Assembly (NCBI GenBank): GCA_038065395.1
Contig: JBBTRB010000004.1
Location: 135,178-199,177 of the forward strand
From: Patescibacteria group bacterium
Lineage (GTDB): Bacteria > Patescibacteriota > Minisyncoccia > Phycocordibacterales > PALSA-1337
Direction of reading: 5' to 3'
Length of the DNA stretch: 64,000 nucleotides
The position numbers and the translations under genes are program-made. Positions 11,262 through 37,112 of this stretch are shown piece by piece. Under the pieces are notes generated by a model that saw nothing but the letters and a program-made list of their open reading frames with translations, was not told where the DNA came from and ran no database searches. How positions within the stretch are numbered: position 1 is the first letter of the stretch; the number at the start of each line of letters is the position of its first letter.

Positions 11262-11275
11262 ATAATATCTTATTA

Positions 11276-12871
11276 TTGTATATGCCTCTCTTAACAAAAA
11301 CAGACTTTATTTTGTATCGTGAATGTCCAAATAATGTCTGGTTGAAAAGAAACAAACCAGAGGAGTACTGTAAGTTTGAGATTTCTGAATTTGAAAAATC
11401 ACTTGCTGTAATAGGTAATGATGTAGAAGAGTTGGCTCGAGGGATGTTTCCTTCGGGTTATCTTGTGGAGCGGCGAAGTGCTGGCGCACAAGAATTAACT
11501 CAAAAGTTAATTGCTGAAAAAACTCCTGTGATTTTCCAAGCAGTTTTTGCTACTGATAAATGTCTTGCGGCTACTGATGTTTTGCAATGGAATGATTCAG
11601 CCCAGAAATATGATATTTATGAAATAAAGATGTCATCTACGGAAGAGGATGACGAAGAAGAAGTGGAAGAAGGGAAGCCTAAGAAAGTTAATAAAAAGAA
11701 AGAACTCCAGTATGAATATGACCTCGCCTTTCAGGTAAATATTGCCGAGGCATGTGGTGTTCCACTACATAAAAAATACCTTGTTTGTTTGAACCGAGCA
11801 TATGTAAGGAATGGTGAGCTTGATTTTAGACCGAACCAGCTTTTCATTGTTGAGGATAAAACCGACGCAATCGAACTTATGAAAGACGTCGTTGGAGCGG
11901 AGATGTCTCAATCACAAAACTTCCTAGCGGCCACTGCGATGCCTCCCAGCCCTTGTCCTTGCTATTACAAAGGGCGCAACTCGCATTGTACGGCATTTAC
12001 ATACTTAAACCCGACCGTACCCGCATACAGTGTCCATGACTTGAATAGAATCGGAAATAGTAAGAAGTATCTAAAAGAATTACTCGATGAGGGCATTTTG
12101 GAGATTAGCGCTGTTCCTGTTGATGATAGACTTAAGCCAAAGCCCAAGAAAAGTACAGAGAAACCAAGTAAGCCGAAAAAGTTAAACCAAGTCTTAGTTC
12201 ACAAATCTCAAGAGCCTTTAATTGATATTGATTCGATAAAAAATGAACTTGGCGCACTCGTATTTCCACTTTATTTTCTCGATTATGAGACTTATCCGAC
12301 AGCAATTCCTCCTTATAATGGTTATCGACCATATCAGCAAATTGTCTTTCAGTATTCATTACACATCCTGAAAGATAAAGATTCCGAACCGATTTCTTTG
12401 GAATGTTTAATATTAGACGGTGAACCTTCTGAACGTATAGTTAAAAGCCTGCGTGAACATATTGGTGATACTGGAACTGTAATTTCTTGGTTTAAGACTT
12501 TCGAAAACTCTAGAAATCGTGAGCTGGCAACCCTAATACCGAGCCGTAGAGATTTTCTTCTCGGTCTTATTACTCGAACGTATGATTTGATGGATATAGT
12601 AGATGGTCAGCATTACGTACATCCTGGTTTTGAAGGCAGAGCATCAATTAAAAAAGTTTTGCCTGTTATTGCTCCACATCTATCTTATAAAAAACTATGT
12701 GTCCAGAGTGGTACAGATGCAATTGAAGCGTATAGGCAAATAACTAAAGGAGAGTTAACAGGTGAATTAGCCAAAGAAAAGGAGCTTCAAATGCTTGAAT
12801 ACTGCAAGTTGGATACCTACGCCATGTACGTTTTATGGAACTTCTTCAATAAGTTAGTGGATGAAAGTTAA
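11276..12871 (+). CDS. DUF2779-like protein with an N-terminal Cas4/RecB-like nuclease region and a Cys cluster
   Basis: N-terminus KTDFILYRECPNNVWL, central CPCYYKGRNSHC, C-terminal block YFLDYETYPTAIPPYNGYRPYQQIVFQYSLHIL typical of DUF2779. It starts 15 nt after the helicase stop, so is probably co-transcribed. Confidence 0.55.
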   Translation: MYMPLLTKTDFILYRECPNNVWLKRNKPEEYCKFEISEFEKSLAVIGNDVEELARGMFPSGYLVERRSAGAQELTQKLIAEKTPVIFQAVFATDKCLAATDVLQWNDSAQKYDIYEIKMSSTEEDDEEEVEEGKPKKVNKKKELQYEYDLAFQVNIAEACGVPLHKKYLVCLNRAYVRNGELDFRPNQLFIVEDKTDAIELMKDVVGAEMSQSQNFLAATAMPPSPCPCYYKGRNSHCTAFTYLNPTVPAYSVHDLNRIGNSKKYLKELLDEGILEISAVPVDDRLKPKPKKSTEKPSKPKKLNQVLVHKSQEPLIDIDSIKNELGALVFPLYFLDYETYPTAIPPYNGYRPYQQIVFQYSLHILKDKDSEPISLECLILDGEPSERIVKSLREHIGDTGTVISWFKTFENSRNRELATLIPSRRDFLLGLITRTYDLMDIVDGQHYVHPGFEGRASIKKVLPVIAPHLSYKKLCVQSGTDAIEAYRQITKGELTGELAKEKELQMLEYCKLDTYAMYVLWNFFNKLVDES

Positions 12872-13013
12872 TTTATTACAAGTATGGATTCTAGGCTTTT
12901 AATCGAGAAAGCGATAGAATCTCTATATTTAACAAGTTCGGAAAGCCACCCTATAGGGTCACAAAATTTGAATGAACTTATTTTTTTATAACTAATAAAA
13001 ATTTAAAATACAT

Positions 13014-13535
13014 ATGCTCAAAATAAATTTTTATCCTGAAAGTGATCTGAAAGACTTTGCTGAAGCTGTTACTATTTTTGAAAAAATGTGGCAAGAAGAA
13101 GGGGAACGAATCACTGATACGTGGGAACGGGTTACAGGATTGAAGTTCATTGAAACAGAAATAAATGCAGTTGTTGCTGATCTCAAGAGTTGCTCTCACC
13201 CACTTACGTTGAGGTATAGCAATGAATATGATTTCAAGAAATCTACATTGGTACATGAACTCGGTCATCGCATACTATACAGACGGGAAAGTAGTGCTGG
13301 GAACAAAACGACATTTGAGAGACATAAGTTTTTGTTTCTGGTTTTGTACGATGTTTTCTGTGAACTATATGGTCAAGAGTTTACTTATAAAGTTATAGCT
13401 TGGGATAGTAGTCTAGGAAAAGACAAAGGTAGGTCAATGTATGAAGATGCCTGGCAATGGGCATTACAATATAAGACAAAAGAAGAACGACAAAAAATCT
13501 ACAAGGAAATCTTGTCAGGAGAATATGTTTTCTAA
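13014..13535 (+). CDS. HExxH metallopeptidase-like protein, ImmA/IrrE (COG2856)-like
   Basis: Motif STLVHELGHRILY (HELGH) in a ~173-aa protein. AT-rich. Confidence 0.5.
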   Translation: MLKINFYPESDLKDFAEAVTIFEKMWQEEGERITDTWERVTGLKFIETEINAVVADLKSCSHPLTLRYSNEYDFKKSTLVHELGHRILYRRESSAGNKTTFERHKFLFLVLYDVFCELYGQEFTYKVIAWDSSLGKDKGRSMYEDAWQWALQYKTKEERQKIYKEILSGEYVF

Positions 13536-13594
13536 TTTTCGATCTAGTAACTATAAAGTTCCCAACTCTAACTTTAAGTAGTATACTAGTTGGA

Positions 13595-14215
13595 ATGGAT
13601 TCAAAACCTACTGTACGATATGCATTTATAGATGTTCAGAACACTGAAGGGACAGTCAGTCACCTTCTCGGTTTTGTTATTGATTGGCATAAGCTCTACC
13701 ATTACCTCAAAGAACAATGGAATTGCGAAAAGGTATTTTTCTATTCTGGTATTGACCAAGGTAATGAAGATAAAATCGACGAACATCTTGCTCTAAAGAA
13801 TCTCGGTTATGAGATGTCCATCAAACCGTATAAGATATATAAAAATTCCGACAAAATCATTAAAATCATGTGTTCAAAATGCGCGAATGAAATCGACTAT
13901 AAAATTGAAGGTGGTGTCCGATGGAAATCAAATTGTGATGCGGAGCTTTCTGTTGATGCAACAAATCTGGCAAAATCTGGTGCTGAATTTCTGATCTTTT
14001 CAGGAGACGGAGATTTTGAGTGTGTAATAAGGAATGCCGTAGAAAAGGGGGTGAAGGTATACGTGGTCTCCAGCGCACGGAAAGTAAAGACTGGCTTACG
14101 TTACTCTTCATCGAGATTCTCAACCAAACTACGCGAGCTCATTGCTGAGAAACGTGATCTGGTTATTTTCAAAGATATCAATGACTGGAAGATGAGGATC
14201 AAAAAAGATATTTAG
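13595..14215 (+). CDS. NYN/LabA-like (PIN-fold) nuclease-domain protein with an inserted Cys4 zinc-ribbon
   Basis: N-terminal YAFIDVQNT and FSGDGDF acidic motifs typical of NYN domains. Insert CSKCANEIDYKIEGGVRWKSNCD. Confidence 0.55.
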   Translation: MDSKPTVRYAFIDVQNTEGTVSHLLGFVIDWHKLYHYLKEQWNCEKVFFYSGIDQGNEDKIDEHLALKNLGYEMSIKPYKIYKNSDKIIKIMCSKCANEIDYKIEGGVRWKSNCDAELSVDATNLAKSGAEFLIFSGDGDFECVIRNAVEKGVKVYVVSSARKVKTGLRYSSSRFSTKLRELIAEKRDLVIFKDINDWKMRIKKDI

Positions 14216-20972: not shown

Positions 20973-22247
20973 ATGAAAAAAATATCTATAGACGCACCTT
21001 TAGTAGCACTCGGTGGACTTATCATCTTGGCAGGAGGCATGCTCATCACGTCTTCGGTCACACAGATCGGTAGCATATATCGCACGATTGCCCAGGAGGC
21101 TCCGGCAGAGAGTCAGCTCGCACAAGTCGGTGGTGGTGGAGGCTTCGGCAATGAAGTCAAGGGTTGGGCATGGTCGTCGAACGTCGGCTGGATCAGTTTC
21201 AACTCTACTGACGCTGGTGCAGGTGGCGGTCCGTACAAAGTCTCGATCTCTACTACAACCGCAAATCCAACTCTCGGTAAGTTCGGTGGATATGCCTGGT
21301 CTCCGAACGTCGGCTGGATCAGTTTCAACTCCGCTGATGTCTCAGGTTGCCCAGAAGTCGGCACTCTCGATGGTTGCAACCCGGCAGTCAGTCTGACCAG
21401 TGGCGCAGTCACTGGCTATGCTCGTGTCCTGTCCATGAAGAATGAGTCTGGCGATGGTTGGGTACAACTTTCAGGTACCAACCACCCAAGTGCTTCGGGA
21501 GACTCGAGTGGTGTTACTTTCAACACAAGTACCAAAGACTTCACTGGCTATGCTTGGGAGCCTACTGCTTTGGGCTGGATACTCGTCGATGCGAAACTAG
21601 ATAGTGTGGCAAGTGTTCAGTCTGGTCTGCAGGTGACCTGTTCGAGTTCTGCTGCTCCTTCGAACACTGTCGCTGCAGGTGCATCCGTCACATTCACTGC
21701 TAATGTCACCGGAGGAACATCACCATATTCATATACCTGGGGTTCATGTGGTACGAATTCGAACACCTGTGCGGTGACATACGGTGCATCTGGTACTGGC
21801 CCATCACTCACGGTGACCGATAGTACTTCACCTACCGCACTTTCAAAATCTCCAAGTCCTTCTTGCCCAGTCATCACCGTCAACACGACCTCATCCGGCA
21901 CCAACCTCTTCATCGGCTCCAACATCTCAACTACCAAGACTTCTCATTCTCTGAGACAAGGCAACATCTTTGCTCTGAGTTGGACTGATGCCCCGACAGA
22001 CTATGATTCTTGTGAACTCACTATCAGTAACGGTGGAAATGGATATTGGACCAATGCGATAGATGCAGTATCTGGTAGTGGGGCACAAGCAGGGAACATT
22101 GCAGGGCTTCTGACGGCCGTGTCTTCAGGCGTGCAACGTGGTAACTACACATTCACTCGTACGTGTCATGATGCCGAAGCACTTCTTCCACCGCAGCCTT
22201 CCACAGCCACCCTCCGTATTGTGGGCGCCTCCGGCGAAGAATTCTAG
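20973..22247 (+). CDS. Secreted/membrane-anchored repeat protein with three GW...ISFNS units
   Basis: N-terminal hydrophobic segment. Repeated KGWAWSSNVGWISFNSTD / GGYAWSPNVGWISFNSAD. 28-bp identical DNA repeats at 21178..21205 and 21304..21331. Confidence 0.6.
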   Translation: MKKISIDAPLVALGGLIILAGGMLITSSVTQIGSIYRTIAQEAPAESQLAQVGGGGGFGNEVKGWAWSSNVGWISFNSTDAGAGGGPYKVSISTTTANPTLGKFGGYAWSPNVGWISFNSADVSGCPEVGTLDGCNPAVSLTSGAVTGYARVLSMKNESGDGWVQLSGTNHPSASGDSSGVTFNTSTKDFTGYAWEPTALGWILVDAKLDSVASVQSGLQVTCSSSAAPSNTVAAGASVTFTANVTGGTSPYSYTWGSCGTNSNTCAVTYGASGTGPSLTVTDSTSPTALSKSPSPSCPVITVNTTSSGTNLFIGSNISTTKTSHSLRQGNIFALSWTDAPTDYDSCELTISNGGNGYWTNAIDAVSGSGAQAGNIAGLLTAVSSGVQRGNYTFTRTCHDAEALLPPQPSTATLRIVGASGEEF

Positions 22248-22440: not shown

Positions 22441-23139
22441 ATGAGACTTTTCTATATCACGCCATTCATCTTGCAGGGATTGATCTGGTTGCCCACCCGT
22501 ATGGCTTTGTCTGTCTTCGGGAGACTTGAGATCCGTGGCCTCCACAATCTCAAAAAAGTTCACGAGAATGTCATCTTTGCATCCAACCACACCAGTGAGT
22601 TGGATGTCTTTGTAATCGCTTCGTCTGTGCCATTCTGGTCACATTTCTCTCCACTGTACTTCGCATCGCGTGAGAACAAGTTCTACGACTCTTCCGGCTG
22701 GCGTCGACATCTCTATGGGGGCACGATCTTCAAGCTCTGGGGCGCCCAACCTGTTCATGCTGGTATGCATAACTACGAGAAGTCTCTCTCCAACCATACC
22801 TATCTGCTCAAAGACGGCAAGAGTGTGCTCCTGTTTCCCGAAGGACACATCACGACCGATGGCTCTGTCCAAGACGCACGCGGCGGGGTCGCGTACCTGG
22901 CGACCCATGTTGGCTGTACGGTCATCCCAGTAGGGATCTCGGGTGCGTACAGCATATCTCTATCTGACTTCTTCCTGCGTCGTCGCAAGATCATCGTGCG
23001 GTTCGGTGACCCGATATACCCCGAAGAACTCGACATCGCAGTTCGCCAAGATCACGACACCGAAGGTGCCGAGAACGTCTACAAACGCGAAGCCACCTAC
23101 ATCATGGAGAAGGTCAAGGAGATGTTAGGAATGGGGTAG
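22441..23139 (+). CDS. plsC: 1-acyl-sn-glycerol-3-phosphate acyltransferase (PlsC-like)
   Basis: HxxxxD motif NHTSELD and PEGHIT block. Confidence 0.75.
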   Translation: MRLFYITPFILQGLIWLPTRMALSVFGRLEIRGLHNLKKVHENVIFASNHTSELDVFVIASSVPFWSHFSPLYFASRENKFYDSSGWRRHLYGGTIFKLWGAQPVHAGMHNYEKSLSNHTYLLKDGKSVLLFPEGHITTDGSVQDARGGVAYLATHVGCTVIPVGISGAYSISLSDFFLRRRKIIVRFGDPIYPEELDIAVRQDHDTEGAENVYKREATYIMEKVKEMLGMG

Positions 23140-23151
23140 GGAAAGACAGAT

Positions 23152-24138
23152 CTAATGCCCAACTATCTTTAGCGTAGAACCTTCAGGAGAAACAGTTAGC
23201 CGGACCTTTCCTCCGATAGGGAAGGTGATCATTGGTTCTGTGTGTCCAAAGTCTATATTTGCAAGTACAGGAATGCGATCGAGCTCTTTCTTCGACTTGA
23301 TAACTTTTATGAGATGCTCCATCTCAATTTCACTGGCATTTTCGAATCTTCCAATGACAATACCTCGCACTTTGTTGAAGTTGGGAAGGTGAATGATCGA
23401 CTGTAGATCGCGGTTGAAATTCACAAGCTTGGAATCGCGATCGTCCTCTATGAATAAAATAGAGCCCGAGATATCCGGAAGATATTCTGTTCCCTGGAGA
23501 AGGTTGAAGGTACAGATATTGCCACCGAGGAGAATTCCTTCTGCAGAACCTTCGTTAATAACCAGCCATCCTTCATTTTTGAGCAGTTTCCGTTTTTCCT
23601 GATCGGCAAGCCATCCATCGTTGCTCCATGATTCACTCGGTAGTACGTCGAATTCTCCCTCAGCACATACGCATTTTTTGAAATATTCTAGGGTGTAGTC
23701 AAAATAAAGTTTCTGACCAAAGGTTGAATACAATGGCCCAGAATAGGTAACAAGGCCAGTTTTCGTATAGATGGCATTTTGCAATGCGGTGATGTCGGAA
23801 TAACCTATAAATACCTTGGGATTATTCCGTATGATGTCCCAGTCTATATATCGTAGAAGCTCATTGGAATTAAAACCACCAAAAGCGGCGATGATCCCTT
23901 TTACACTTTTGTCTGAAAATGCCTGATGGAGATCGCTGACTCGAGATTGGATGCTTGAAGAGTCGAATTCGTTCAATTCTCTGGCATGTTGAGTATAGGA
24001 TACCTCAAGACCTATTTCCGTGAATCTTTCATGGGCGATGCGCTCTACTTCTGGTGAAATATTTCCTAGAGAGTCAGAAGGTGCTATCACCATGATCTTA
24101 TCACCTCGTTTTAGTTTTTCTGGAAAAATTGGTTTCAT
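23152..24138 (-). CDS. ldcA: LD-carboxypeptidase (peptidase S66, LdcA/MccF-like)
   Basis: KLKRGDKIMVIAPS N-terminus and overall S66 layout. Confidence 0.7.
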   Translation of the reverse strand: MKPIFPEKLKRGDKIMVIAPSDSLGNISPEVERIAHERFTEIGLEVSYTQHARELNEFDSSSIQSRVSDLHQAFSDKSVKGIIAAFGGFNSNELLRYIDWDIIRNNPKVFIGYSDITALQNAIYTKTGLVTYSGPLYSTFGQKLYFDYTLEYFKKCVCAEGEFDVLPSESWSNDGWLADQEKRKLLKNEGWLVINEGSAEGILLGGNICTFNLLQGTEYLPDISGSILFIEDDRDSKLVNFNRDLQSIIHLPNFNKVRGIVIGRFENASEIEMEHLIKVIKSKKELDRIPVLANIDFGHTEPMITFPIGGKVRLTVSPEGSTLKIVGH

Positions 24139-24162
24139 GTGCGTATAACTATAGCTTTTTTT

Positions 24163-24192
24163 AAATAAAATGCCACCAGGAAAAATCCAGGT
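24163..24192 (-). terminator. Hairpin terminator (tgccaccagg/ccaggtggca) downstream of the 24226..24804 gene
   Basis: 10-bp stem with one mismatch, A/T runs on both sides. Confidence 0.5.
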
Positions 24193-24225
24193 GGCATCAT
24201 GTTGTTTTGAAAGTCTCCTGTGAGG

Positions 24226-24804
24226 CTAGAGGAGAACATGGCATGCGTCGATCAATACCAGATCCTTCGTGAGCCTTTTGACGAGGAGCATGCCGTATTT
24301 GCCGGTGTTCGTCATCATAACAATGACGGATCCTGGCTCGATATTGACCTGTCCCTGACGCTTTGCACATGCGGTGGTGCACATCTCCACCATGTCTTGC
24401 AACCTATCGAGCGAGTGGAATACGTGAAACTCCGCGGCGTTGATCGGAGCAGGGGCGATCCAGGTTTCGCAGAACTGATCTTTTGTGACTGAACCTTCGA
24501 GCAATCCGAGGTTACGTGCTCTTGTCATCGAACAGACCTGCTTGTAATCCGCCGTACCGAGACGGAACAGCAGGTTTGCTTCCTGACCAAGGTCCGCGAT
24601 ATTCGCGACCGCCCGTGCTTTGTTCGATTTGCACTTGGCGAATACGAAGACTGGACGCTCAAGGGTAAACTTCGCGGAATACCCGTAGTACTCTCCGTGA
24701 ACTGCCGGGATGAGTTGTTCGCCAGGAGTTACTCGTGCTTCTTTCGTCCAACCACCACAGAGCGTATAGCCCTGCAGAGCAGTCGCTGCTTCTAATGTTT
24801 TCAT
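24226..24804 (-). CDS. Hypothetical protein
   Basis: ORF with plausible start MKTLEAATALQGY. No recognised motif. Confidence 0.5.
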   Translation of the reverse strand: MKTLEAATALQGYTLCGGWTKEARVTPGEQLIPAVHGEYYGYSAKFTLERPVFVFAKCKSNKARAVANIADLGQEANLLFRLGTADYKQVCSMTRARNLGLLEGSVTKDQFCETWIAPAPINAAEFHVFHSLDRLQDMVEMCTTACAKRQGQVNIEPGSVIVMMTNTGKYGMLLVKRLTKDLVLIDACHVLL

Positions 24805-24960
24805 GTAATGATTCTGTCTAATGTACTGATCAAATCGCCTTATTTTGGAAATAAGTAACAACGATATGATGCTATCTTTAGTATATATCGAATGGATTGC
24901 TTGTCAACCATGTTCCTAGCTATCAAAAGATACAAGTCTTTCATCTGCGACATATAATAA

Positions 24961-25644
24961 TTGGTGGTATCATACGATGACAGGGAATCTTTATATACCA
25001 ATCTACATATGAAAACAGAAAACAACATCTACATGGTCGGTACACCTCAGGAATATTCTGAGGCTCTTTTGAAGCGTGTGTCTGAGGGTCTGAAGGTGGC
25101 TTCGACGACTTTGAAGTATGAAAAGCCGATAGATGTTGCGATCATCGATGCTGAATCATGGGATATCCCTGCGAAGATGTCTATTTTAGCCCATGCTCGC
25201 ATCAACCACATAGAAGCCAAGATCTGTTTTTATCGAGAAGACATACAGATAGATACGGTGATCAATGTCGAACTGCCACTCACTATTCAACATGAATTTT
25301 CACACGTAGTCCGTGCTAATACAGTCGGATACCCCGAGACTCTACTGGACGCATGTATAGACGAAGGGATTGCCTGTTTCGTGGAGTATGGTGCCATGCC
25401 CGAACGATCCATTCCTTATATTCAAGAGATACCAGGGGAGATGGAACTTTTACAAAAAGCTCGTACGCAATTCTCTCAGAGACTCACTTCGAAACTCCAT
25501 AGTGACTGGTTTTATGGTACAGGTGAGATGCCAAACTGGACTGGCTATCGACTCGGTTTTCTAATCGTTCAAAAGTATATGTCTGCAAACAAAATATCCC
25601 TCGACCACCTCGTGAGACTAGACTCAAAGACCGTACTGGCCTAA
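24961..25644 (+). CDS. HExxH-motif protein, putative Zn-dependent peptidase (DUF2268-like)
   Basis: HEFSHVVR motif and C-terminal WTGYRLGFLIVQKYM. The start could instead be the M at 25009. Confidence 0.5.
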   Translation: MVVSYDDRESLYTNLHMKTENNIYMVGTPQEYSEALLKRVSEGLKVASTTLKYEKPIDVAIIDAESWDIPAKMSILAHARINHIEAKICFYREDIQIDTVINVELPLTIQHEFSHVVRANTVGYPETLLDACIDEGIACFVEYGAMPERSIPYIQEIPGEMELLQKARTQFSQRLTSKLHSDWFYGTGEMPNWTGYRLGFLIVQKYMSANKISLDHLVRLDSKTVLA

Positions 25645-26856
25645 CTACACCCCTCTCTCGGTGATCTTGATAAAGTTCTCGATGATGTCTCCCAAGTTCT
25701 TGGCGGATTCGTCAGCGCTGTCGAGGATGGATTTGAGTTCGGGGCCAACAGGGCCGGCAGTGCCTTTGCGGATGGATTCGAGCTCCCATTTGAGTGAAGT
25801 CAGGGGAGTACGGAGGTTGTGTTGAGTCGAGGTGATGAATTCATCCTTGGTCTTGTTGAGCTGTTCAAGCTCGGCTCGAGCACGCTTCTCGACTTCATAC
25901 GCCCTGCGCACATCACGCGTCTGATCGGCGATCCGCTCTTCGAGATGCTCGTTGATCTCTCGTACCCGTCCATAGGCGGTCTTGATCTCCCGTGCCAACT
26001 TCTCGATCTGCTCTCGCTGTCGTATCTCGCTCAACACACTCCGGATCAATACAATGCCGAGTACCACACTGACGACGAAGAGGCTCCCCTGGATCACGAT
26101 ATCCTCTCGTGTCTCTGACAATACCGTGCGGATCAGGATCACGATCCATAACGTGAAGGTGACCAACTCTACCGCGATGACCTTGATGTTAAAGAGATGG
26201 TGGCGGAGGATGGCGAGGGAGATGGCGGATATGAATATGATTGATCCGATAGAGTCTAGGGGTATTAAAGATGTAATTCCTAGTATCGGTAATATAAAAT
26301 TGACAATTCCAACAATAAAACCAAAACCATATAATCCGGAGGCGACATAGCCATATTGCCTTTTTTCAATTCCGCTAGCATCGATAAACGCCTTCGTGAT
26401 TAGGTAGAGTATATAGATACTTATTAATATGAATTGTAACCCAAAAATCGGAAATAAGATTCCGAACGTGCCATCAAATCCTCCTGTAAAACTTCGCTCA
26501 ACGTTGGCAATGATTAAATTTGTAGAGATTGATAAAAAATAAAGTAAAATTGTACTCGACCAGAGGATAGATTTTAATAAACCCCTCATTCCTTTCTTGT
26601 GAATAAAATAATAAACCCAAGTTAGGATGGTAGGAGTTAATATGATCCCTGTGGCATATGCATGTTTGACCCAGAAATTGACAGGTTCAAGCGTGATCAA
26701 CGTATTTGTAATAATCCAGTATGCTGTGACAGCTGAGACTACTGCAAACAACTGATTAATCTTATTTTTCTTGTCATTAAGTAACACGACAACGCCGAGT
26801 GATACCACCAGAATAGACAAGATGTAAATTATCAACGATGTGAAATCCAAATTCAT
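25645..26856 (-). CDS. Membrane sensor with an HisKA (DHp) domain but no HATPase domain. Truncated paralogue of the 28225..29838 histidine kinase
   Basis: Multi-TM N-terminus. H-box FITSTQHNLRTPLTSLK. Ends ~65 aa after the H-box. Junction motif LIRSVLSEIRQREQIEKLA matches LIRSVIKEIAQREKIQKLA of the paralogue. Confidence 0.7.
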   Translation of the reverse strand: MNLDFTSLIIYILSILVVSLGVVVLLNDKKNKINQLFAVVSAVTAYWIITNTLITLEPVNFWVKHAYATGIILTPTILTWVYYFIHKKGMRGLLKSILWSSTILLYFLSISTNLIIANVERSFTGGFDGTFGILFPIFGLQFILISIYILYLITKAFIDASGIEKRQYGYVASGLYGFGFIVGIVNFILPILGITSLIPLDSIGSIIFISAISLAILRHHLFNIKVIAVELVTFTLWIVILIRTVLSETREDIVIQGSLFVVSVVLGIVLIRSVLSEIRQREQIEKLAREIKTAYGRVREINEHLEERIADQTRDVRRAYEVEKRARAELEQLNKTKDEFITSTQHNLRTPLTSLKWELESIRKGTAGPVGPELKSILDSADESAKNLGDIIENFIKITERGV

Positions 26857-26916
26857 CCCAGTACTATACTATTTTTGGTTATACTTGGTAAGTCTTATTT
26901 GTGTTAATATAGTGGG

Positions 26917-27291
26917 ATGACTTTCGGGGAACATTTAATGTTGGATGGATACGAGGGTGACTCGGCATTACTAAATGATAAAGATCTTGTGCTCAAGTGC
27001 CTTAATGAGTTACCTGAGCTTTTAGGTATGAAGAAGCTTTCGAATCCTGAAATCTACTGGGCTGCAGGTAATGGTCAAAAAGACCCTGGGGGATGGAGCG
27101 GCTTTGTTGTAATTGAGGAGAGTCATATAAGTATTCATACTTTCCCTGGAAAAAGGTTTGTCAGTGCTGATGTCTATACTTGTCAGAATGGTTTAAATAC
27201 CACATACATCACGGATTATTTTAAGAAAAACTTCTTATTGAGCGACATTGAATCCAATTTTGTTAAGAGGGGAACTAGATATCCTGACTGA
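26917..27291 (+). CDS. speH: S-adenosylmethionine decarboxylase proenzyme (class 1b, SpeH/SpeD-like)
   Basis: Self-cleavage site context EESHISIHTFPG (ES|HISIHTWPE-type). Confidence 0.8.
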   Translation: MTFGEHLMLDGYEGDSALLNDKDLVLKCLNELPELLGMKKLSNPEIYWAAGNGQKDPGGWSGFVVIEESHISIHTFPGKRFVSADVYTCQNGLNTTYITDYFKKNFLLSDIESNFVKRGTRYPD

Positions 27292-27302
27292 ATCTAAGTT
27301 AT

Positions 27303-28235
27303 ATGGAAAATGTACTTATAAAACTCACTGAATTTAGTAATCAGATCGCTGGAAATTATAATCTCGATTTAGAGGTATTTTTTGTAATATATTTAACCTC
27401 ATTTATTCCTTTCTACCTTGGTTATTTTCTGATGATTTTTGGTAGTACAAGGAAACTGAGATTAAAAGATATATTTTCTTTGAACATAAGAAATAAGTTA
27501 AGGTGGAATGATCAATCAAGTTTAGGCTTACTAATCCATCTCTTTGGCAGGATTATGCCTTATGCCTATATAGTATGGTTTGGAAGAAACTTACCTATAT
27601 TGATGCAAGTCCTGGTTTGGGGATCTATAGTATTAAGTATATTTTTTGCAGTCAGAAAATTTTTTGTTGGAAAGTCTAGACCTCCTCTGGATATCGAGAT
27701 TGTCAAAAAAGAGATTATTGATGATCCGAAAGATAAAGAAAAGTTGTGGGAAATATATAATTCAAATTTTGAACACGTAAATAAGATTAGTCCGTGTAAA
27801 CAGAGTTTTGATCACGAGCATTTTATTGAGACGCTCACAAATCACTCAGTTAAGAAGTATCTAATCCTAAAGAAAGGAGGGGGCTTTTTGGGTATAGGCT
27901 TTATAACTTCTGATTTTAAGAATACGCCCTGGATAAGTGAAGATTATTTCAAAACAAATTTTCAATTTGAATACCAGAATAATCTAATGTTTTATTTCAT
28001 GGGTTTGGCGATTAGTTCAGAATTCCAAGGAAGAAAGTATTCAATACCACTACTTGAGTACATAATAGATGATCTTCCACATGGGGCAGTAATGGGATTT
28101 GATCACTCACGAAATATTAATCCACTCCTACACCACTTTACTAGAGTTGTTCGGCAGGCGAAAATAATGAAACGTATGTATCTAGACAGACAACATTACC
28201 ACGTTGTTACAAGAAAAAACTCTCATGATCTTTAA
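27303..28235 (+). CDS. Membrane protein with a C-terminal GNAT-like acyltransferase domain (tentative)
   Basis: 3-4 N-terminal TM helices. C-terminal GLAISSEFQGRKYSIPLLEY resembles GNAT motif A. AT-rich. Confidence 0.45.
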   Translation: MENVLIKLTEFSNQIAGNYNLDLEVFFVIYLTSFIPFYLGYFLMIFGSTRKLRLKDIFSLNIRNKLRWNDQSSLGLLIHLFGRIMPYAYIVWFGRNLPILMQVLVWGSIVLSIFFAVRKFFVGKSRPPLDIEIVKKEIIDDPKDKEKLWEIYNSNFEHVNKISPCKQSFDHEHFIETLTNHSVKKYLILKKGGGFLGIGFITSDFKNTPWISEDYFKTNFQFEYQNNLMFYFMGLAISSEFQGRKYSIPLLEYIIDDLPHGAVMGFDHSRNINPLLHHFTRVVRQAKIMKRMYLDRQHYHVVTRKNSHDL

Positions 28236-29838
28236 TATATTATCAATAATAACTCTGACTCTAACCCTCCTATTAGGCTTGTATGTCTATTCGAATGACA
28301 GGAAAAATAAAATAAATATAGTATTTAGTTTACTTATATTAAGTGCAACCGCTTGGATATTTACGAATCTGATGACGGATCTTTCCAGAGATCTTTATTA
28401 TATTAAGTTGTGGAGTAAGTTGGTTTTAGTGGGACCAGTTTTTATCGGGTATTTCTTTTATCGACTTTCCCTTATCTTGCCGAAAGAAAAGAAACAGGGG
28501 AAAAAAATAAAGTGGACAATACATTTAGCTGTTTTGGTTCTACTGGTCTTAATACCGACTGATCTGAATGTTAGTAGTGTATATTTTTTGGCAAATGATA
28601 TACCTGCAATTACACCAGGACCACTGTATGTATTTTATCTACTGTATCTCATTGGAATTATCGCTCTTGCGTTTAGGAATTTCTTCGAGAATTACCAAAA
28701 GCTAGATAGCCTTTCAAGATTACAAGTTCAGTATATTTCCCTAGGTTTAGGCATATCAGCATGTTTGGGTAGTGTTACAAATATAGTATTTCCAATACTG
28801 GGAAGTTCCGAATTTGTTAATTTTGGTCCATATTTTATATTGATTTTTATATTTTTCACAACATTCGCTATCATTAAATACAAACTCTTCAACGTCCGTG
28901 TCATCGCCACTGAACTCATCATATTCAGCTTGTGGATATTCATCTTCATTCGCGCACTATTGGAAACAGATCTCAAGGAAAAGGTCATCGAGTATGTATT
29001 ACTCCTTATCACCGTGGTGGTCGGCATATTCCTGATCCGCAGTGTGATCAAGGAGATCGCTCAGCGTGAGAAGATCCAGAAGCTTGCCAATGATCTCCAG
29101 GGTGCCAACGACAAGCTCAAAGAGATGGACCGTCAGAAGTCCGAGTTCGTGTCATTCGCCACACATCAGCTTCGTGCGCCACTGACTGCCATGAAAGGGT
29201 ATGCGTCATTGCTCCTGGAAGGCGAGATGGGTGTCATACCTCCCGAGGGCAAGACGGCGATCGGGCGTATCTTCGAGTCGACCAATACGTTGGCGGCGAT
29301 CGTTGATGACTATCTCAATGTCACGCGTATCGAGCTCGGTAGTATCCGCTATACCTTCGACACGATCGACCTCAAGGATCTCATAGAGAACGTGATCGCC
29401 GAACTCAAGCCGAACATCGACAAGGCCACGCAGGTCAAGTTCAGCGTAGCGATCGACAAGCCGACTTCGCACTATCGTGTCACTGCTGACAAAGACAAAC
29501 TCAAACAGGTGATCGCCAACCTGGTCGACAACTCGGTCAAGTACACTCCTCAGGGAACCGTCAAGGTGTCACTGAGCCAAGATCTGACCACCCGTAACTT
29601 TGTATTCAAGATCCAAGATACTGGTATCGGTATATCTGCCGAGATCCTTCCGAAACTCTTCCAGAAATGGTCTCGTGCCAATAACGCCAACAAGACCAAC
29701 ATCAAAGGTACGGGACTGGGCCTCTATGTCGCCAAAGAGATCATCACTGCTCATCATGGCACTATCCGTGTAGAGTCTCCAGGCGAAGGCAAGGGAAGTA
29801 CGTTCACGGTGGAACTTGTACCGGTTGAGAAGGTATAA
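28225..29838 (+). CDS. Sensor histidine kinase (multi-TM sensor, HisKA, HATPase_c)
   Basis: H-box FVSFATHQLRAPLTAMKGY. N/G-boxes DNSVKYT, GTGLGLYVAKEIITAHHGTIRV. The ORF table begins at 28204; 28225 (MIFNIL) is an alternative start. Confidence 0.85.
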   Translation: MIFNILSIITLTLTLLLGLYVYSNDRKNKINIVFSLLILSATAWIFTNLMTDLSRDLYYIKLWSKLVLVGPVFIGYFFYRLSLILPKEKKQGKKIKWTIHLAVLVLLVLIPTDLNVSSVYFLANDIPAITPGPLYVFYLLYLIGIIALAFRNFFENYQKLDSLSRLQVQYISLGLGISACLGSVTNIVFPILGSSEFVNFGPYFILIFIFFTTFAIIKYKLFNVRVIATELIIFSLWIFIFIRALLETDLKEKVIEYVLLLITVVVGIFLIRSVIKEIAQREKIQKLANDLQGANDKLKEMDRQKSEFVSFATHQLRAPLTAMKGYASLLLEGEMGVIPPEGKTAIGRIFESTNTLAAIVDDYLNVTRIELGSIRYTFDTIDLKDLIENVIAELKPNIDKATQVKFSVAIDKPTSHYRVTADKDKLKQVIANLVDNSVKYTPQGTVKVSLSQDLTTRNFVFKIQDTGIGISAEILPKLFQKWSRANNANKTNIKGTGLGLYVAKEIITAHHGTIRVESPGEGKGSTFTVELVPVEKV

Positions 29839-29842
29839 AAAC

Positions 29843-29871
29843 AACCCCATCACGTCAAGCGCGATGGGGTT
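29843..29871 (+). terminator. Hairpin terminator after the histidine kinase (aaccccatc...gatggggtt)
   Basis: Read directly. Confidence 0.6.
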
Positions 29872-29886
29872 GGGAGTTCATCTCCT

Positions 29887-31142: not shown

Positions 31143-31669
31143 ATGAAAAATGGCAAATACATCCAAAGACTCAAAGTCCTCAATTTGCTCACAGGCAAGG
31201 GCCGTATGCTCGATCTGGGTTGTGGAGATGGCTACGACTCTCTTATTTTCAAAGAGATGGGCTATATCGTCGATGGGGTAGATCGACGCGACTATACGAT
31301 ACCTGAGATCAATTTCACCCGATCAGATATCCGTGATTTTGTGATTGCAAAAGACGCATATTCACTCATTTTCTGTATCATACTCTTCCATTTATACAAG
31401 AAAAAACAGAGGTCAAAGACATGCTCATAAGGATGGCTAACGGATTGGTCTCTGGTGGCGTCATGTACTACACACTCTTTGGTCACAAGGACGCATGGGC
31501 GAACGATCCTACCATGTCGTTTTATGACTTCGCTGAGGCAGACGAGATGGCGCAGGCTCTACCAGGTATCAAGATCATCGAGAATCTCAACGTAGAAGGA
31601 GATGGTCTAACTATGAAAGGTACACCCAAACACTTCGAGATACATCATTTCATAGGGATCAAGGAGTAA
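31143..31669 (+). pseudogene. Class I SAM-dependent methyltransferase interrupted by a -1 frameshift in an A6 run near 31401..31406
   Basis: Motif I LDLGCGDGYDS in frame 1 ends at ...ILFHLYKKK. The downstream frame continues ...TEVKDMLIRMANGLVSGGVMYYTLFG (LkpGG-like post-motif). Adding one A restores a single ~175-aa ORF. Confidence 0.65.
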
Positions 31670-35059: not shown

Positions 35060-35476
35060 TTAGTAATCTCCCAAAATCATAACCATATACAAAAACCAAG
35101 AATACCAACCTATTCCAGCGGTTCCGATTATCCCTAGAATAATTCCCGCGGGTAGATTTTCTCTAATACTTTTTTTGAGTGAAATAAATACGCCTAAAAT
35201 TAAAAGTACAAATAATACCAGAATTGTGATTATGGTAAAGATGATATGCAGATCGGGATAAGTTTTCAATAGACAAGATTCCGGAATCTTAAAAATGCAG
35301 TATGATTCGAGTTGTCCTATTAGGAATGACCAGAGTCCTGCTGCTGTGTATAGATAAATTGACCAAAGAGTATTTTTATATTTTTTCATCTTCGTATTAT
35401 AACGTGCGAAGATATTAAGCACCAAAACCACGTGTGGATAATCATAGTATCCAGTATCTGATATAATAATCAGCAT
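35060..35476 (-). CDS. Small polytopic membrane protein
   Basis: 138 aa, 3-4 hydrophobic helices. Confidence 0.45.
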   Translation of the reverse strand: MLIIISDTGYYDYPHVVLVLNIFARYNTKMKKYKNTLWSIYLYTAAGLWSFLIGQLESYCIFKIPESCLLKTYPDLHIIFTIITILVLFVLLILGVFISLKKSIRENLPAGIILGIIGTAGIGWYSWFLYMVMILGDY

Positions 35477-37112
35477 GAATGATCTATCTGGAGAGAATAT
35501 ACAGGCATATACGGAAGTAGAGAATGTTCAAAGTTCTCAACATACGATGAGGCGTCAATTCATCACATATACTGGATTGTTAGCGATACTTCTCGGGGCT
35601 TTTAAAATATATTTCGATTCAAACGTATTAATAACAGGTCTACTATATGTATATCGCGGTATCCCAAATCCTCCTCAGCCAGGGTTCGCAGTCACCATAA
35701 TTGTGTATGTTGTATGTTTGGTATATATCATATTAGGTAAACGAATCATCGATCAAAAAGATAAAAATGTTCGAACTTTTATTCGTATACTGACGTTTAT
35801 TTCGATCATTCTGACCATATATGAAACTCTTAGACCAAATTTATTCGCAGCATTTATTGCTGCACTTGTTCCGTTTCTGGTCTGTGCGGACATACTTATA
35901 GGAAAGATATTGAAATCCGAGGAATTCAAAAAGAGTCTATATACACCCAATTATTATTTTAATATACCTACTACACTCATATATACAGGCATCACCATCT
36001 TACTGGTTATAGGTGCTTCGTTCCTGGAAAGAAAGATCTATCCTCCGGTAATCTGGGTGACATATCAGGATATGGATCATGGATTTCAAATTTCGTATCC
36101 TTCATGGTTGCGGTCTGTCAATTCGGCTGAACATAGGAATGGAACAAGAGAATATCTTATGCCTGAGGCATTCAACAGAATTATTGAGATCGCTGATGTT
36201 ATATCAACCACTACGAAACCTTATTTTAGAGGGTATATGAATATTACATCATCACTTTGGAGTCCTGAGAGTTCAGAGGATATGGTTGAAAAGTTGAAAA
36301 TGTCTATTGCCCAAAGGAGTTCATCGCCCCAAGCATCTACAACACCTGCCGTATATGAAGAGATTACTTTGGGAAATCAGAAATTTTATTCATTATTATA
36401 TTTGCCAACTGCCAAAAGAGAAAATTATACACGACAGATATACGTTTTTGTTCCGGCATATGACCTTTTCGGGATACATCAACCATCTAGAGTGCTTCTC
36501 TTGGAGTATACTCCAGCCAATTATCCAATCTTCCAGGAAATCTCCTCAACATTAAAAATGATCCCGATAGTTCCTACTGATGAAGGGTTATGGAATAGTA
36601 TCAGTGAACATACAGATATCTCATGGTGTGATCATATGGACAATGAAGAAATGAGATATGCTTGTCGTGTGCAAATACGCGGATATCCTATTGTAGAAAA
36701 ATATCCTTTAAATTTGGACATGATTCTTGGTCAAGATGGAACGGTTGAAATTATAGGCACATCCACTCTCAAGATTTCAACTTCAAAGCTTGACTCTAAT
36801 GCAACACAATTGGGATCTTGGATAATGTTTGCAACCACCACTGGCGAAGGGTTGTGGGCAATTAATTTTGACGCTACATTTGAAAATAGTGAGAAAGCGG
36901 AGAGTTTACTTTCTATGTATTGGGGTGACGAGAAGATCGGAAGTATCGACGGAAGAATGGTGTCCATGTCAGGCGATCTAGGTCCTTGGTTCTTCGCCTC
37001 GACTACTAAAAATAATAGTCTATATCCATTCGGTTTTCGTCTGGATTCATTTGTATCTGCGGGTACCACCTCCGTAATCATAAAGAACATCAGAGCAGAA
37101 TCTTTCCGATAG
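35475..37112 (+). CDS. Membrane protein (multi-TM N-terminus) with an extracytoplasmic C-terminal domain paralogous to the C-terminus of the 32288..35002 protein
   Basis: WAINFDATFENSEKAESLLSMYWGDEKIGSIDGRMVSMS aligns with VNFVSFDARYSGVQGSRNILTVYWDTNIIGQIDEKVVSS. FGFRLDSF aligns with LGFRVDPY. Confidence 0.6.
   Translation: MNDLSGENIQAYTEVENVQSSQHTMRRQFITYTGLLAILLGAFKIYFDSNVLITGLLYVYRGIPNPPQPGFAVTIIVYVVCLVYIILGKRIIDQKDKNVRTFIRILTFISIILTIYETLRPNLFAAFIAALVPFLVCADILIGKILKSEEFKKSLYTPNYYFNIPTTLIYTGITILLVIGASFLERKIYPPVIWVTYQDMDHGFQISYPSWLRSVNSAEHRNGTREYLMPEAFNRIIEIADVISTTTKPYFRGYMNITSSLWSPESSEDMVEKLKMSIAQRSSSPQASTTPAVYEEITLGNQKFYSLLYLPTAKRENYTRQIYVFVPAYDLFGIHQPSRVLLLEYTPANYPIFQEISSTLKMIPIVPTDEGLWNSISEHTDISWCDHMDNEEMRYACRVQIRGYPIVEKYPLNLDMILGQDGTVEIIGTSTLKISTSKLDSNATQLGSWIMFATTTGEGLWAINFDATFENSEKAESLLSMYWGDEKIGSIDGRMVSMSGDLGPWFFASTTKNNSLYPFGFRLDSFVSAGTTSVIIKNIRAESFR

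Follow-up and report, generated by a model that had tools for sequence, protein, structure and literature searches.

The stretch analysed here, referred to as the window, comprises 64,000 nucleotides of contig JBBTRB010000004.1 (positions 135,178 to 199,177 of the forward strand; assembly GCA_038065395.1) from a Patescibacteria group bacterium. It harbors a locus of four genes, all of them verified by open reading frame (ORF) calling and a Pfam scan of the window: a short sensor kinase paralogue (HKshort) and, diverging from it, speH, a gene for a membrane protein with a GNAT-like C-terminus and a full-length sensor kinase (HKfull). In the following, F denotes the full kinase (HKfull), S the short partner ending with its dimerization and histidine phosphotransfer (DHp) domain (HKshort), the frame the 3' parts of the two genes, and the core the block 26230..28878 between them (Table 1). 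The architecture of the locus is that of a conserved frame, formed by the 3' parts of two outward-facing paralogues, around a swappable core. The identical locus was found in independent assemblies, from ENA (ERZ1292619, Hainich groundwater) and from Logan. The exact HKshort protein was present on seven contigs, where Logan contig L002 contained the entire locus and L003 the junction between HKshort and the DUF2268 gene. As different assemblers reproduce both compositional junctions described below, these are not chimeras; an assembly chimera was ruled out by the identical locus in independent assemblies together with the same pattern in other genomes.

Table 1. Features of the kinase locus and of the genes next to HKshort (window positions; TM, transmembrane; GC3, GC content at third codon positions).
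Feature	Position	Strand	Remarks
HKshort conserved module, codons 210-403 and stop	25645..26229	-	GC 0.545, GC3 0.72
HKshort variable sensor module, codons 1-209, seven TM helices	26230..26856	-	GC3 0.37; sensor cluster 9
Divergent intergenic region, 60 bp	26857..26916	.	consensus scan, pattern matches only
speH, class 1b AdoMetDC-family pyruvoyl decarboxylase, 124 aa	26917..27291	+	Pfam AdoMet_dc E 6e-23
Membrane-anchored GNAT-fold protein, 310 aa	27303..28235	+	AlphaFold2 model and Foldseek
HKfull variable sensor module, codons 1-218, seven TM helices	28225..28878	+	Pfam HisKA_7TM; GC3 0.29; sensor cluster 3
HKfull conserved module: TM8, TM9, linker, DHp, HATPase_c	28879..29838	+	GC 0.507, GC3 0.66
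AT-rich exchangeable cassette, 2,649 bp	26230..28878	.	GC 0.338 vs 0.46 for the window
GC-rich hairpin, 13-bp stem, 4 nt past the HKfull stop	29842..29872	.	pattern match only
DUF2268 gene	24961..25644		extra gene beside HKshort
211-aa ORF	24226..24861		extra gene
S66 LD-carboxypeptidase	23152..24138		extra gene

HKshort and HKfull are paralogues (27% identity, E 2e-38), as had been proposed in a first-pass annotation of this stretch, which had also judged the plus-strand kinase to be complete. HKfull starts at ATG 28225 (alternative TTG 28204), ends at 29838 and indeed contains the entire set of kinase domains, with Pfam matches to HisKA_7TM (PF16927) at residues 15-231 (49.0 bits, cut-off 28.6), HisKA at 311-378 (E 7.5e-13) and HATPase_c at 429-538 (101 bits). 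With its C-terminal half, 1510 homologues were retrieved at E ≤ 1e-40. The H-box of HKfull, FATHQLRAPLT, carries Ala at His+4 and is identical in 15 of 16 loci of the divergent-pair clade, the exception being L018 with Ile at His+2. No receiver domain was detected in the 64-kb window by tblastn with CheY, PhoB, NarL and Spo0F, which agrees with the earlier remark that a response regulator is not visible nearby. In distant relatives with seven TM helices (7TM) and the H-box TTQHHLRTPLT, a single-domain receiver of ~125-150 aa is encoded directly downstream, 3' of the full kinase in L019, L023, L036, L053, L056, L071 and L085, while the divergent-pair clade has none; the type of regulator that partners these relatives may hint at the type that HKfull uses elsewhere in the source genome.

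In HKshort, the only Pfam domain matched was HisKA at residues 337-396 (36.7 bits, cut-off 26.9). The PF16927 profile left the protein unmatched in our scan, yet it is paralogous to HKfull over the whole region, and many short homologues carry a precomputed PF16927 match. Its conserved module consists of the cytoplasmic motif RHHLFNIK, TM8, TM9, a long coiled-coil linker into which 32 residues are inserted as compared with HKfull, and a complete DHp hairpin that has His346 in the H-box STQHNLRTPLT; the C-terminus aligns with HKfull residue ~374, where the DHp domain ends. The AlphaFold2 model (mean predicted local distance difference test score, pLDDT, 75) has seven helices, a short cytoplasmic turn and two further membrane helices, giving nine TM helices, of which the last continues as a helix of ~110 residues through His346, followed by a loop, the helix 372-401 and the stop (helix spans 224-246, 250-363 and 372-401). 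No HATPase_c match was obtained for HKshort in Pfam, and tblastn of HKfull against the window found no remnant of a catalytic domain in any frame downstream of it. Since, in addition, the model ends after DHp helix alpha2, HKshort is not a kinase by itself, and the earlier description of a DHp domain without a catalytic domain was confirmed. A frameshift that would have cost HKshort its catalytic domain was ruled out, as tblastn detected nothing downstream.

Short proteins of this kind are not confined to the window. HisKA-only homologues of ~400 aa were found by database search down to 33% identity. In an alignment of 16 short forms, His346, Arg349 and Pro351 are invariant, 15 of the 16 terminate directly after the motif IENFIxITExxV, and the transition from variable to conserved sequence lies at residues ~210-216 ('HHLFNIKVIAVEL'), which is the position of the GC3 break in HKshort. 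When the C-terminal half was searched exhaustively against 1.8 billion cluster representatives, the best 150 representatives included 25 distinct 50%-identity clusters of proteins with 395-435 aa, whose match ends within 25 residues of the C-terminus and which are interleaved with 48 full-length kinases. Between the C-terminal half of HKshort and its closest relative, L093, the ratio of nonsynonymous to synonymous divergence (dN/dS) is ~0.07 at dS ~1.1. Judged by this conservation, HKshort is a conserved protein under purifying selection and not a pseudogene. The residue at His+4 was Thr in all 23 S proteins examined and Ala in all 16 paired F proteins. In HisKA kinases, Thr or Asn at this position is needed for phosphatase but not for kinase activity (PMC3510030), and therefore the residues found suggest a division of labor in which F would be a kinase-only and S a phosphatase-only receptor. 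To the roles put forward for S at first pass (phosphatase, decoy or dimerisation partner), the data add only its conservation under purifying selection and this phosphatase-associated Thr, which F lacks. In several loci, the partner is shorter still, lacks the H-box and retains the membrane helices and the start of the linker (L089 5039-5956, L090 4563-5510, L091 4277-5242, L092 5064-5960; also L020, L033, L064 and L079). Short forms also occur in tandem, two or three in a row, or in the co-directional order S, oxoamine synthase, F (L048, L057, L035, L033). The contig of P0004 has two short forms of ~401 aa in tandem, and in some genomes (JAZDFH01, H51-bin058_1) five to seven family members are found on separate contigs.

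The composition of the DNA changes abruptly inside both kinase genes. GC content drops from ~0.55 to ~0.33 between ~26.1 and ~28.9 kb, and GC3 profiles along each gene, a check proposed at first pass, located one changepoint at codon 209 of HKshort (0.37 to 0.72, window position ~26229) and one at codon 218 of HKfull (0.29 to 0.66, ~28879), which are homologous positions in the alignment of the two proteins. Upon permutation of codons, 0 of 2000 replicates reached the observed log-likelihood ratio (LLR; 24.4 for HKshort, 36.5 for HKfull; top permuted value 10.1), and in all 30 other window genes of at least 200 codons the changepoint LLR was at most 7.8. The GC3 expected from the amino acids with background codon usage is flat (0.53 in the N-terminal parts, 0.48-0.55 in the C-terminal parts), and thus amino-acid composition explains none of the shift, contrary to the previous suggestion that codons for hydrophobic residues account for a part of it. 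In HKfull, ATC was used for 5 of 28 Ile codons before the break and for 26 of 33 after it. The break had further been taken as the boundary between the membrane and the cytoplasmic half. This did not stand, as, by hydropathy, seven TM segments precede the break and two, TM8 and TM9, follow it in the GC-rich part. Because TM8-TM9 are GC-rich (GC3 0.66-0.78) while the soluble cargo is AT-rich (speH 0.36, GNAT domain 0.29), the AT-rich unit is one continuous block, 26230..28878, which extends from TM7 of one kinase across both enzyme genes to TM7 of the other. An effect of membrane codons or amino acids as the cause of the step was rejected on these same grounds.

The low-to-high step in GC3 was also detected in kinases of L008, L010, L012, L013, L015, L016, L018, L020, L021 and L091 and is not visible in uniformly AT-rich genomes such as L007, L089 and L092. 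Elsewhere it is positioned at codons ~195-212 in short forms and at ~214-218 or ~265-279 in full kinases. It could be argued that HKshort is a functionless, decaying duplicate and that the step is a by-product of membrane codon usage or an assembly artefact, and two observations resemble what this would predict: some partners are shortened to 298-345 aa without an H-box, as in progressive loss, and some F changepoints in other loci (codons 265-279) fall near the end of the membrane region. However, the dN/dS of 0.07, the kept position of the stop and a His that is invariant across 16 or more members and the 25 representative clusters contradict decay. The high GC3 of TM8-TM9 next to the low GC3 (0.29-0.36) of soluble speH and the GNAT domain contradicts a codon-usage effect, and the coincidence of the GC3 break with a break in sequence identity, in a locus that is identical in independent assemblies, contradicts an artefact. 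We regard this explanation as very improbable and as already largely refuted.

Other AT-rich DNA is present in the window. The other large island (7746-14215, GC 0.32-0.39) encodes a superfamily 1 (SF1) helicase of 1171 aa (AAA_11/AAA_12) fused to a MTES_1575/DUF559 nuclease as well as a DUF2779 protein and a NYN-domain protein, and looks like accessory or defence-type content. As this second island carries accessory genes, AT-rich DNA coincides with accessory content in this genome. A further patch (GC ~0.35) contains a 545-aa ORF (35475-37112) and a 138-aa ORF (35060-35476), both without a Pfam match.

In related genomes, the frame is retained and the core is replaced. On contigs with short homologues, the gene order is YqeY, other genes, the full kinase with the cargo on its inner side and, pointing away from it, the short kinase, a PlsC-type acyltransferase, a large ORF and Ile/Val-tRNA synthetase. 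A scan of the GTDB species genomes yielded 79 additional loci, nearly all labelled Patescibacteria, and divergent pairs of a short and a full kinase were present in at least 12 species-level genomes. The cargo differs among the pairs in L004, L007, L008, L010, L012, L013, L015, L016, L018, L020 and L021. An alpha-oxoamine synthase similar to BioF, KBL and serine palmitoyltransferase is encoded in L004, L008, L010, L012, L015 and L020 and also in L093, an enzyme similar to the PigE N-terminus and acyl-ACP reductases in L016 and L021, a SAM methyltransferase together with a LuxI-like protein (Autoind_synth/FeeM/Acetyltransf_5) in L018, a weak-GNAT protein together with a phosphatidylserine (PS) decarboxylase in L007, and a 544-aa protein in L013. 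Against PDB, the oxoamine synthase scored 1e-88 with BioF/KBL, 1.5e-86 with bacterial serine palmitoyltransferase and 1e-28 with CqsA; it passes the bioF model (444, cut-off 426) and fails the AHK synthase model (194.7, cut-off 428). In all divergent-pair loci, the cargo is read in the direction of F and never in that of S.

The kinases themselves are mosaics. Four full-length proteins (P0006, P0008, P0010, P0011) share 47-61% identity with HKshort in their N-terminal halves and 64-74% with HKfull in their C-terminal halves, while two short ones (P0007, P0009) are 87-89% identical to HKshort in their C-terminal halves and ~20% in their N-terminal halves. In the case of P0007, which belongs to L093 and its oxoamine synthase cargo, the values are 89% and 21%. 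At the nucleotide level, the identity of L093 to the window rises from ~0.45, which is noise, to 0.88-0.93 at codons 209-211, where GC3 rises in both, and between HKfull and the kinase of L008 the rise is located at codons ~206-216. In both genes, unrelated sequence thus gives way to conserved sequence at the GC3 step, after TM7. The domain shuffling that had been suspected at first pass is therefore genuine, with N-terminal 7TM modules exchanged independently of the C-terminal halves. Among 97 full-length F proteins, the C-terminal halves are 58-97% identical (median 68%) and the N-terminal halves fall into ~10 discrete clusters; 78 of the 132 F pairs with C-terminal halves at least 80% identical have N-terminal halves less than 30% identical. 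As 31 of 39 S sensors cluster with F sensors, S and F frames draw on one sensor pool. The window S sensor (type 9) is the type found on the full kinase beside the oxoamine synthase in L004, L008 and L010, and, conversely, the GNAT-associated type 3 is carried by S in L012 and L015, two loci with an oxoamine synthase.

The sensors of F follow the cargo. Sensor cluster 3 is found on F in all five loci with GNAT cargo (the other four being 47-55% identical to the window), cluster 11 in both loci with LuxI-like cargo and cluster 12 in all three with a 514-aa cargo ORF of no assigned family. The oxoamine synthase is accompanied by F sensor cluster 9 or 4 in 9 of 11 loci, with singleton sensors in the other two. 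By sequence comparison, the F sensor and the enzyme encoded immediately upstream of it vary together.

The sharing of sensor types between S and F frames, and the inverted arrangement of the conserved segments around the core, would also be expected of a phase-variable shufflon, in which inversion between the inverted kinase segments would swap the sensor that is joined to the catalytic domain. The junctions do not bear this out, since they contain no long or exact inverted repeat and share only ~70% identity. Moreover, no recombinase gene was found nearby among the ORFs and Pfam matches of the neighborhood, a single orientation was seen across independent assemblies, and the cargo of divergent-pair loci always runs with F. 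Such an inversion system is the most improbable of the explanations considered here.

In the window, the cargo consists of two enzymes. The speH product belongs to the class 1b S-adenosylmethionine decarboxylase (AdoMetDC) family with a cleavage site, as annotated at first pass: it matched Pfam AdoMet_dc (81.6 bits, E 6e-23) and PDB AdoMetDC proenzymes (2e-7), and its sequence, ...EESHISIHTFPG...C, contains a Glu-Ser site for self-cleavage; counted from its Ser, His is at position +5 and Cys at position +20, which corresponds to the catalytic set S63/H68/C83 of Thermotoga maritima (PMC10407285). With the NCBIfam model TIGR03330 (SAM_DCase_Bsu), however, it scored 72.2, below the cut-off of 75.65. 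The AdoMetDC family has repeatedly given rise to ornithine or arginine decarboxylases, also in bacteria of the Candidate Phyla Radiation (CPR) (PMC10407285).

The 310-aa protein encoded downstream had no sequence match in Pfam, NCBIfam or, by phmmer, PDB. Its AlphaFold2 model (pLDDT 81.6) shows N-terminal membrane helices and a C-terminal alpha/beta domain (~131-304), for which Foldseek against PDB gave 57 matches at E ≤ 1e-3, all of them GNAT proteins (Naa60, NatD, GCN5, PaiA and FeeM, an N-acyl amino acid synthase; TM-scores normalised to the target, TMt, of 0.5-0.63). A membrane protein with a GNAT-like C-terminus, as first described, was thereby recovered. A relationship to SpeG, which had been considered at that stage, was not: no SpeG, Acetyltransf_1 or other GNAT sequence family was matched in Pfam or NCBIfam, and a conserved stretch RGNxYS is present instead of the canonical CoA motif Q/RxxGxG/A. 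In profile comparison, the protein is also unrelated to the GNAT-like cargo of L007 or L018. It belongs to a conserved family of ~306-308 aa whose top non-self homologue is 56% identical. Members in four further genomes (L089-L092) are found at the syntenic position, where each immediately precedes a full 7TM kinase whose sensor is of the type carried by HKfull. By this synteny, the GNAT gene is the core cargo of this cassette type, while speH accompanies it in L090 and L091; L089 and L092 have the GNAT gene and the kinase but no speH.

These data bear on the polyamine synthesis and acetylation module that had first been proposed for the two genes, in which speH would supply decarboxylated AdoMet for spermidine, a SpeG-like GNAT would acetylate, and the kinases would regulate polyamine homeostasis. 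The intact Ser/His/Cys set of the AdoMet_dc domain and the GNAT fold of the neighboring protein are in its favor. Nevertheless, no speE or other aminopropyltransferase (spermidine synthase) gene was found within the locus, speH falls under the equivalog cut-off in a family whose CPR homologues include ornithine and arginine decarboxylases (PMC10407285), two of the four other GNAT cassettes do without it, and the slot is filled in sister genomes by unrelated, non-polyamine acyl/amine enzymes. Because speH is below the cut-off and dispensable, an aminopropyltransferase is missing, and the GNAT protein is membrane-anchored and matches neither SpeG nor any Pfam GNAT model, a housekeeping polyamine module is quite unlikely, and the proposal was not upheld.

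We favor the reading that the locus is probably a polymorphic synthase-receptor locus of autoinducer-like type, with a cassette that is replaced through recombination within the kinase genes. The common denominator of the cargo types appears to be acyl/amine chemistry (decarboxylase and GNAT, decarboxylative oxoamine synthase, LuxI/FeeM-type N-acyl synthase, thioester reductase), and since this chemistry is shared and the membrane sensor is inherited with the enzyme one-to-one, a synthase-receptor pair fits. Exchange would proceed through homologous recombination, the crossovers lying in the conserved stretch of each gene that encodes TM8 to DHp, and the S sensor and the unit of enzyme plus F sensor would also be movable independently. 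Two origins of the AT-richness of the core can be envisaged. Either the core circulates in a shared low-GC pool and has ameliorated only partially, or, being non-homologous, it is shut out of homologous exchange and of the GC-biased conversion that the frame would undergo; the data fit both alike. With less certainty, the enzymes may produce a membrane-active small molecule of the acyl/amine type, which in the window might arise by N-acylation of the decarboxylase product by the membrane GNAT. This product would be sensed inside the membrane by the co-inherited F sensor, as in an autoinducer-like synthase-receptor pair. S would be a kinase-dead receptor of other specificity that feeds the same pathway, most plausibly as a phosphatase or phospho-acceptor with a DHp domain alone, or by forming heterodimers with F.

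A serious rival, which we consider possible although less than likely, is that the locus serves membrane-lipid remodelling. The cargo enzymes and the PlsC-type acyltransferase would then modify own or scavenged lipids, the kinases would monitor bilayer composition instead of a diffusible signal, and cassette diversity would reflect differing host or lipid environments. In line with this, a PlsC-type acyltransferase is the constant neighbor of the locus, the oxoamine synthase matches bacterial serine palmitoyltransferase (1.5e-86) almost as well as it does BioF/KBL, PS-decarboxylase occurs as cargo in L007, and the window GNAT is membrane-anchored. To our knowledge, Patescibacteria lack de novo lipid synthesis, which would also favor this explanation. 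It is less easily reconciled with a cassette composed of a LuxI/FeeM-type synthase and a methyltransferase, or with the soluble AdoMetDC-family decarboxylases, which are not lipid enzymes. In addition, the tight one-to-one link between enzyme and sensor fits ligand-specific sensing better than a generic bilayer sensor.

Several observations weigh against a synthase-receptor locus with recombining cassettes. No signal molecule, regulon or response regulator is known for the locus, and no receiver gene was found in any divergent-pair locus. HKfull has Gln at His+1 and not Glu or Asp, an unusual feature in an active HisKA kinase. The oxoamine synthase cargo passes the BioF but fails the CqsA-type cut-off, so that the enzymes could be metabolic or lipid-modifying instead. 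The sensor of S shows no link to the cargo, since GNAT cargo was found with S type 9 (window), type 2 (L090) and type 4 (L091). The short forms share their H-box with a sister subfamily of full-length kinases (TTQHHLRTPLT), and for many members of this subfamily a single-domain regulator is encoded directly downstream. As the partner is shortened further in L089-L092, L020 and L033 (298-345 aa, no H-box), a DHp-based role for S is not universal. Finally, a recent donor of the cassette was sought, and no homologue above 56% identity was found in the databases; with the nearest frame at dS ~1.1, recent transfer is not demonstrated.

The locus might, in a rather unlikely scenario, even be pherotype-like. 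The enzyme of its own cassette would then make one lipid- or amine-type signal that is detected by the co-inherited F sensor, S would sense the signal of other strains, and cassettes would be swapped between lineages by recombination inside the kinase genes, with S acting as a phosphatase or inhibitory heterodimer partner, so that a strain's own signal and foreign signals would drive a single pathway in opposite directions. Such a locus would be the counterpart of agr cross-inhibition for small molecules, fixed in the form of two receptors.

Further features were noted around the locus. The GNAT gene overlaps the start of HKfull by 11 nt, and the hairpin behind HKfull is likely a terminator closing the speH-GNAT-HKfull operon, although the scan placed it on the minus strand. 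The intergenic region has promoter-like matches to the consensus on both strands, by pattern only. It is edged (26863-26913) by the mirror-image -10-like boxes ACTATA and TATAGT, which lie 4-7 nt from each start codon and therefore imply either divergent transcripts with almost no leader or an operator common to both directions. Between HKshort and the PlsC-type acyltransferase, a second variable spot (22441-25644) holds the three extra genes of Table 1. These are absent from L004, L007 and L008, where the short kinase directly adjoins the acyltransferase. The DUF2268 stop adjoins that of HKshort with zero intergenic bases, and DUF2268 genes are also located beside the locus in L090, L010 and L021. 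A recurrent neighbor is a secreted or anchored protein of ~410-450 aa with repeated GYAWSxNIGWIxFN motifs and no Pfam match on record (window 20973-22247; L013 5376-6728, where it sits between the kinases; L090 3217-4455). Between the kinase locus and YqeY, the overlapping ORFs at 31143-31669 (95 aa with weak TehB/Methyltransf_25 similarity, and 82 aa) resemble a small methyltransferase gene that has been split or has suffered a frameshift. In L090, a 735-aa nitroreductase-YcaO fusion (8792-10999) directly follows the full kinase, a hint that the operon can take up additional biosynthetic genes.

Patescibacteria (CPR) are abundant and host-dependent bacteria, most of them uncultured, and next to nothing is known of their signalling. 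With more than 1500 full-kinase homologues (E ≤ 1e-40), the locus represents a widespread case in which enzyme and receptor specificity would be inherited as one exchangeable unit, with breakpoints that could be mapped to within a few codons. The natural chimeras show at which point, after TM7, a HisKA transmitter accepts a new 7TM sensor, which is useful for receptor engineering, and from the enzyme-sensor pairs the ligands of orphan receptors may be predicted. The transmembrane DHp-only proteins that are paired with full kinases form a family of considerable size, in which split kinase/phosphatase signalling or signalling by heterodimers could be studied. A GC3 step within a gene, moreover, can pinpoint a recombination junction.

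The closest organizational analogue is the hypervariable region of the staphylococcal agr locus, the likeness being one of organization and not of homology. There, the variable block comprises the signal-producing genes agrB-agrD and the N-terminal membrane sensor of agrC, the cytoplasmic kinase part is conserved, and signal and receptor are inherited together (PMC10482373). As in agr, the boundary of the window block lies within a kinase gene, at the point where the sensor helices give way to conserved sequence. In contrast to agr, the window locus has no peptide precursor, AgrB-type protease or adjacent regulator of the AgrA-type/LytTR kind, its kinase is a HisKA protein with nine TM helices and not an HPK10 member, and its cargo consists of enzymes that are non-homologous between loci instead of allelic variants of one gene. 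Furthermore, a second, DHp-only receptor bounds the other side of the block, and the block is compositionally distinct from its surroundings.

In the CqsA-CqsS and LqsA-LqsS/LqsT systems, a multi-TM kinase senses the hydrophobic product of an oxoamine synthase in the membrane (PMC3376566). The adjacency of synthase and kinase is already known from CPR bacteria, as 51 CqsA and 18 LuxI homologues adjoin sensor kinases in CPR genomes according to Bernard et al. (2020, PMC7567580). The sister loci L004, L008, L012 and L018 resemble these CPR cases. Unlike Cqs and Lqs, the window has no oxoamine synthase, its slot being taken by an AdoMetDC-family decarboxylase and a membrane GNAT, and the synthases of the sister loci score as BioF and not as CqsA. 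The accessible part of Bernard et al. (2020, PMC7567580) contains no mention of cassette exchange, a DHp-only partner or a compositional break. Likewise, no description was found in the literature searched of an exchangeable cassette with in-gene junctions, of its compositional signature, of the decarboxylase/GNAT cassette type, or of a conserved transmembrane DHp-only partner that shares the sensor pool.

The conserved flanks around a replaced AT-rich core also resemble serotype-switching loci. In the pneumococcal cps locus (between dexB and aliA) and the O-antigen locus (between galF and gnd), conserved flanks serve as homology arms for the replacement of a non-homologous, often AT-rich gene set. 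Because the arms of the window locus are, unlike those, the 3' halves of signalling genes, each swap of this type would create in-frame chimeric proteins and alter receptor specificity together with the enzymes.

Partners without a kinase domain are known from the split kinase CheA3/CheA4 of Rhodobacter, the DHp interaction of RetS with GacS and the isolated DHp phosphatase of EnvZ. In these systems, a DHp or phospho-accepting protein with no functional catalytic domain receives phosphate from a complete kinase, modulates one, or is a phosphatase. No DHp-only heterodimer partners of the present kind were found described in the literature searched. Unlike the partners in those three systems, S is a full transmembrane receptor with an exchangeable sensor of its own, encoded divergently beside its presumed partner.

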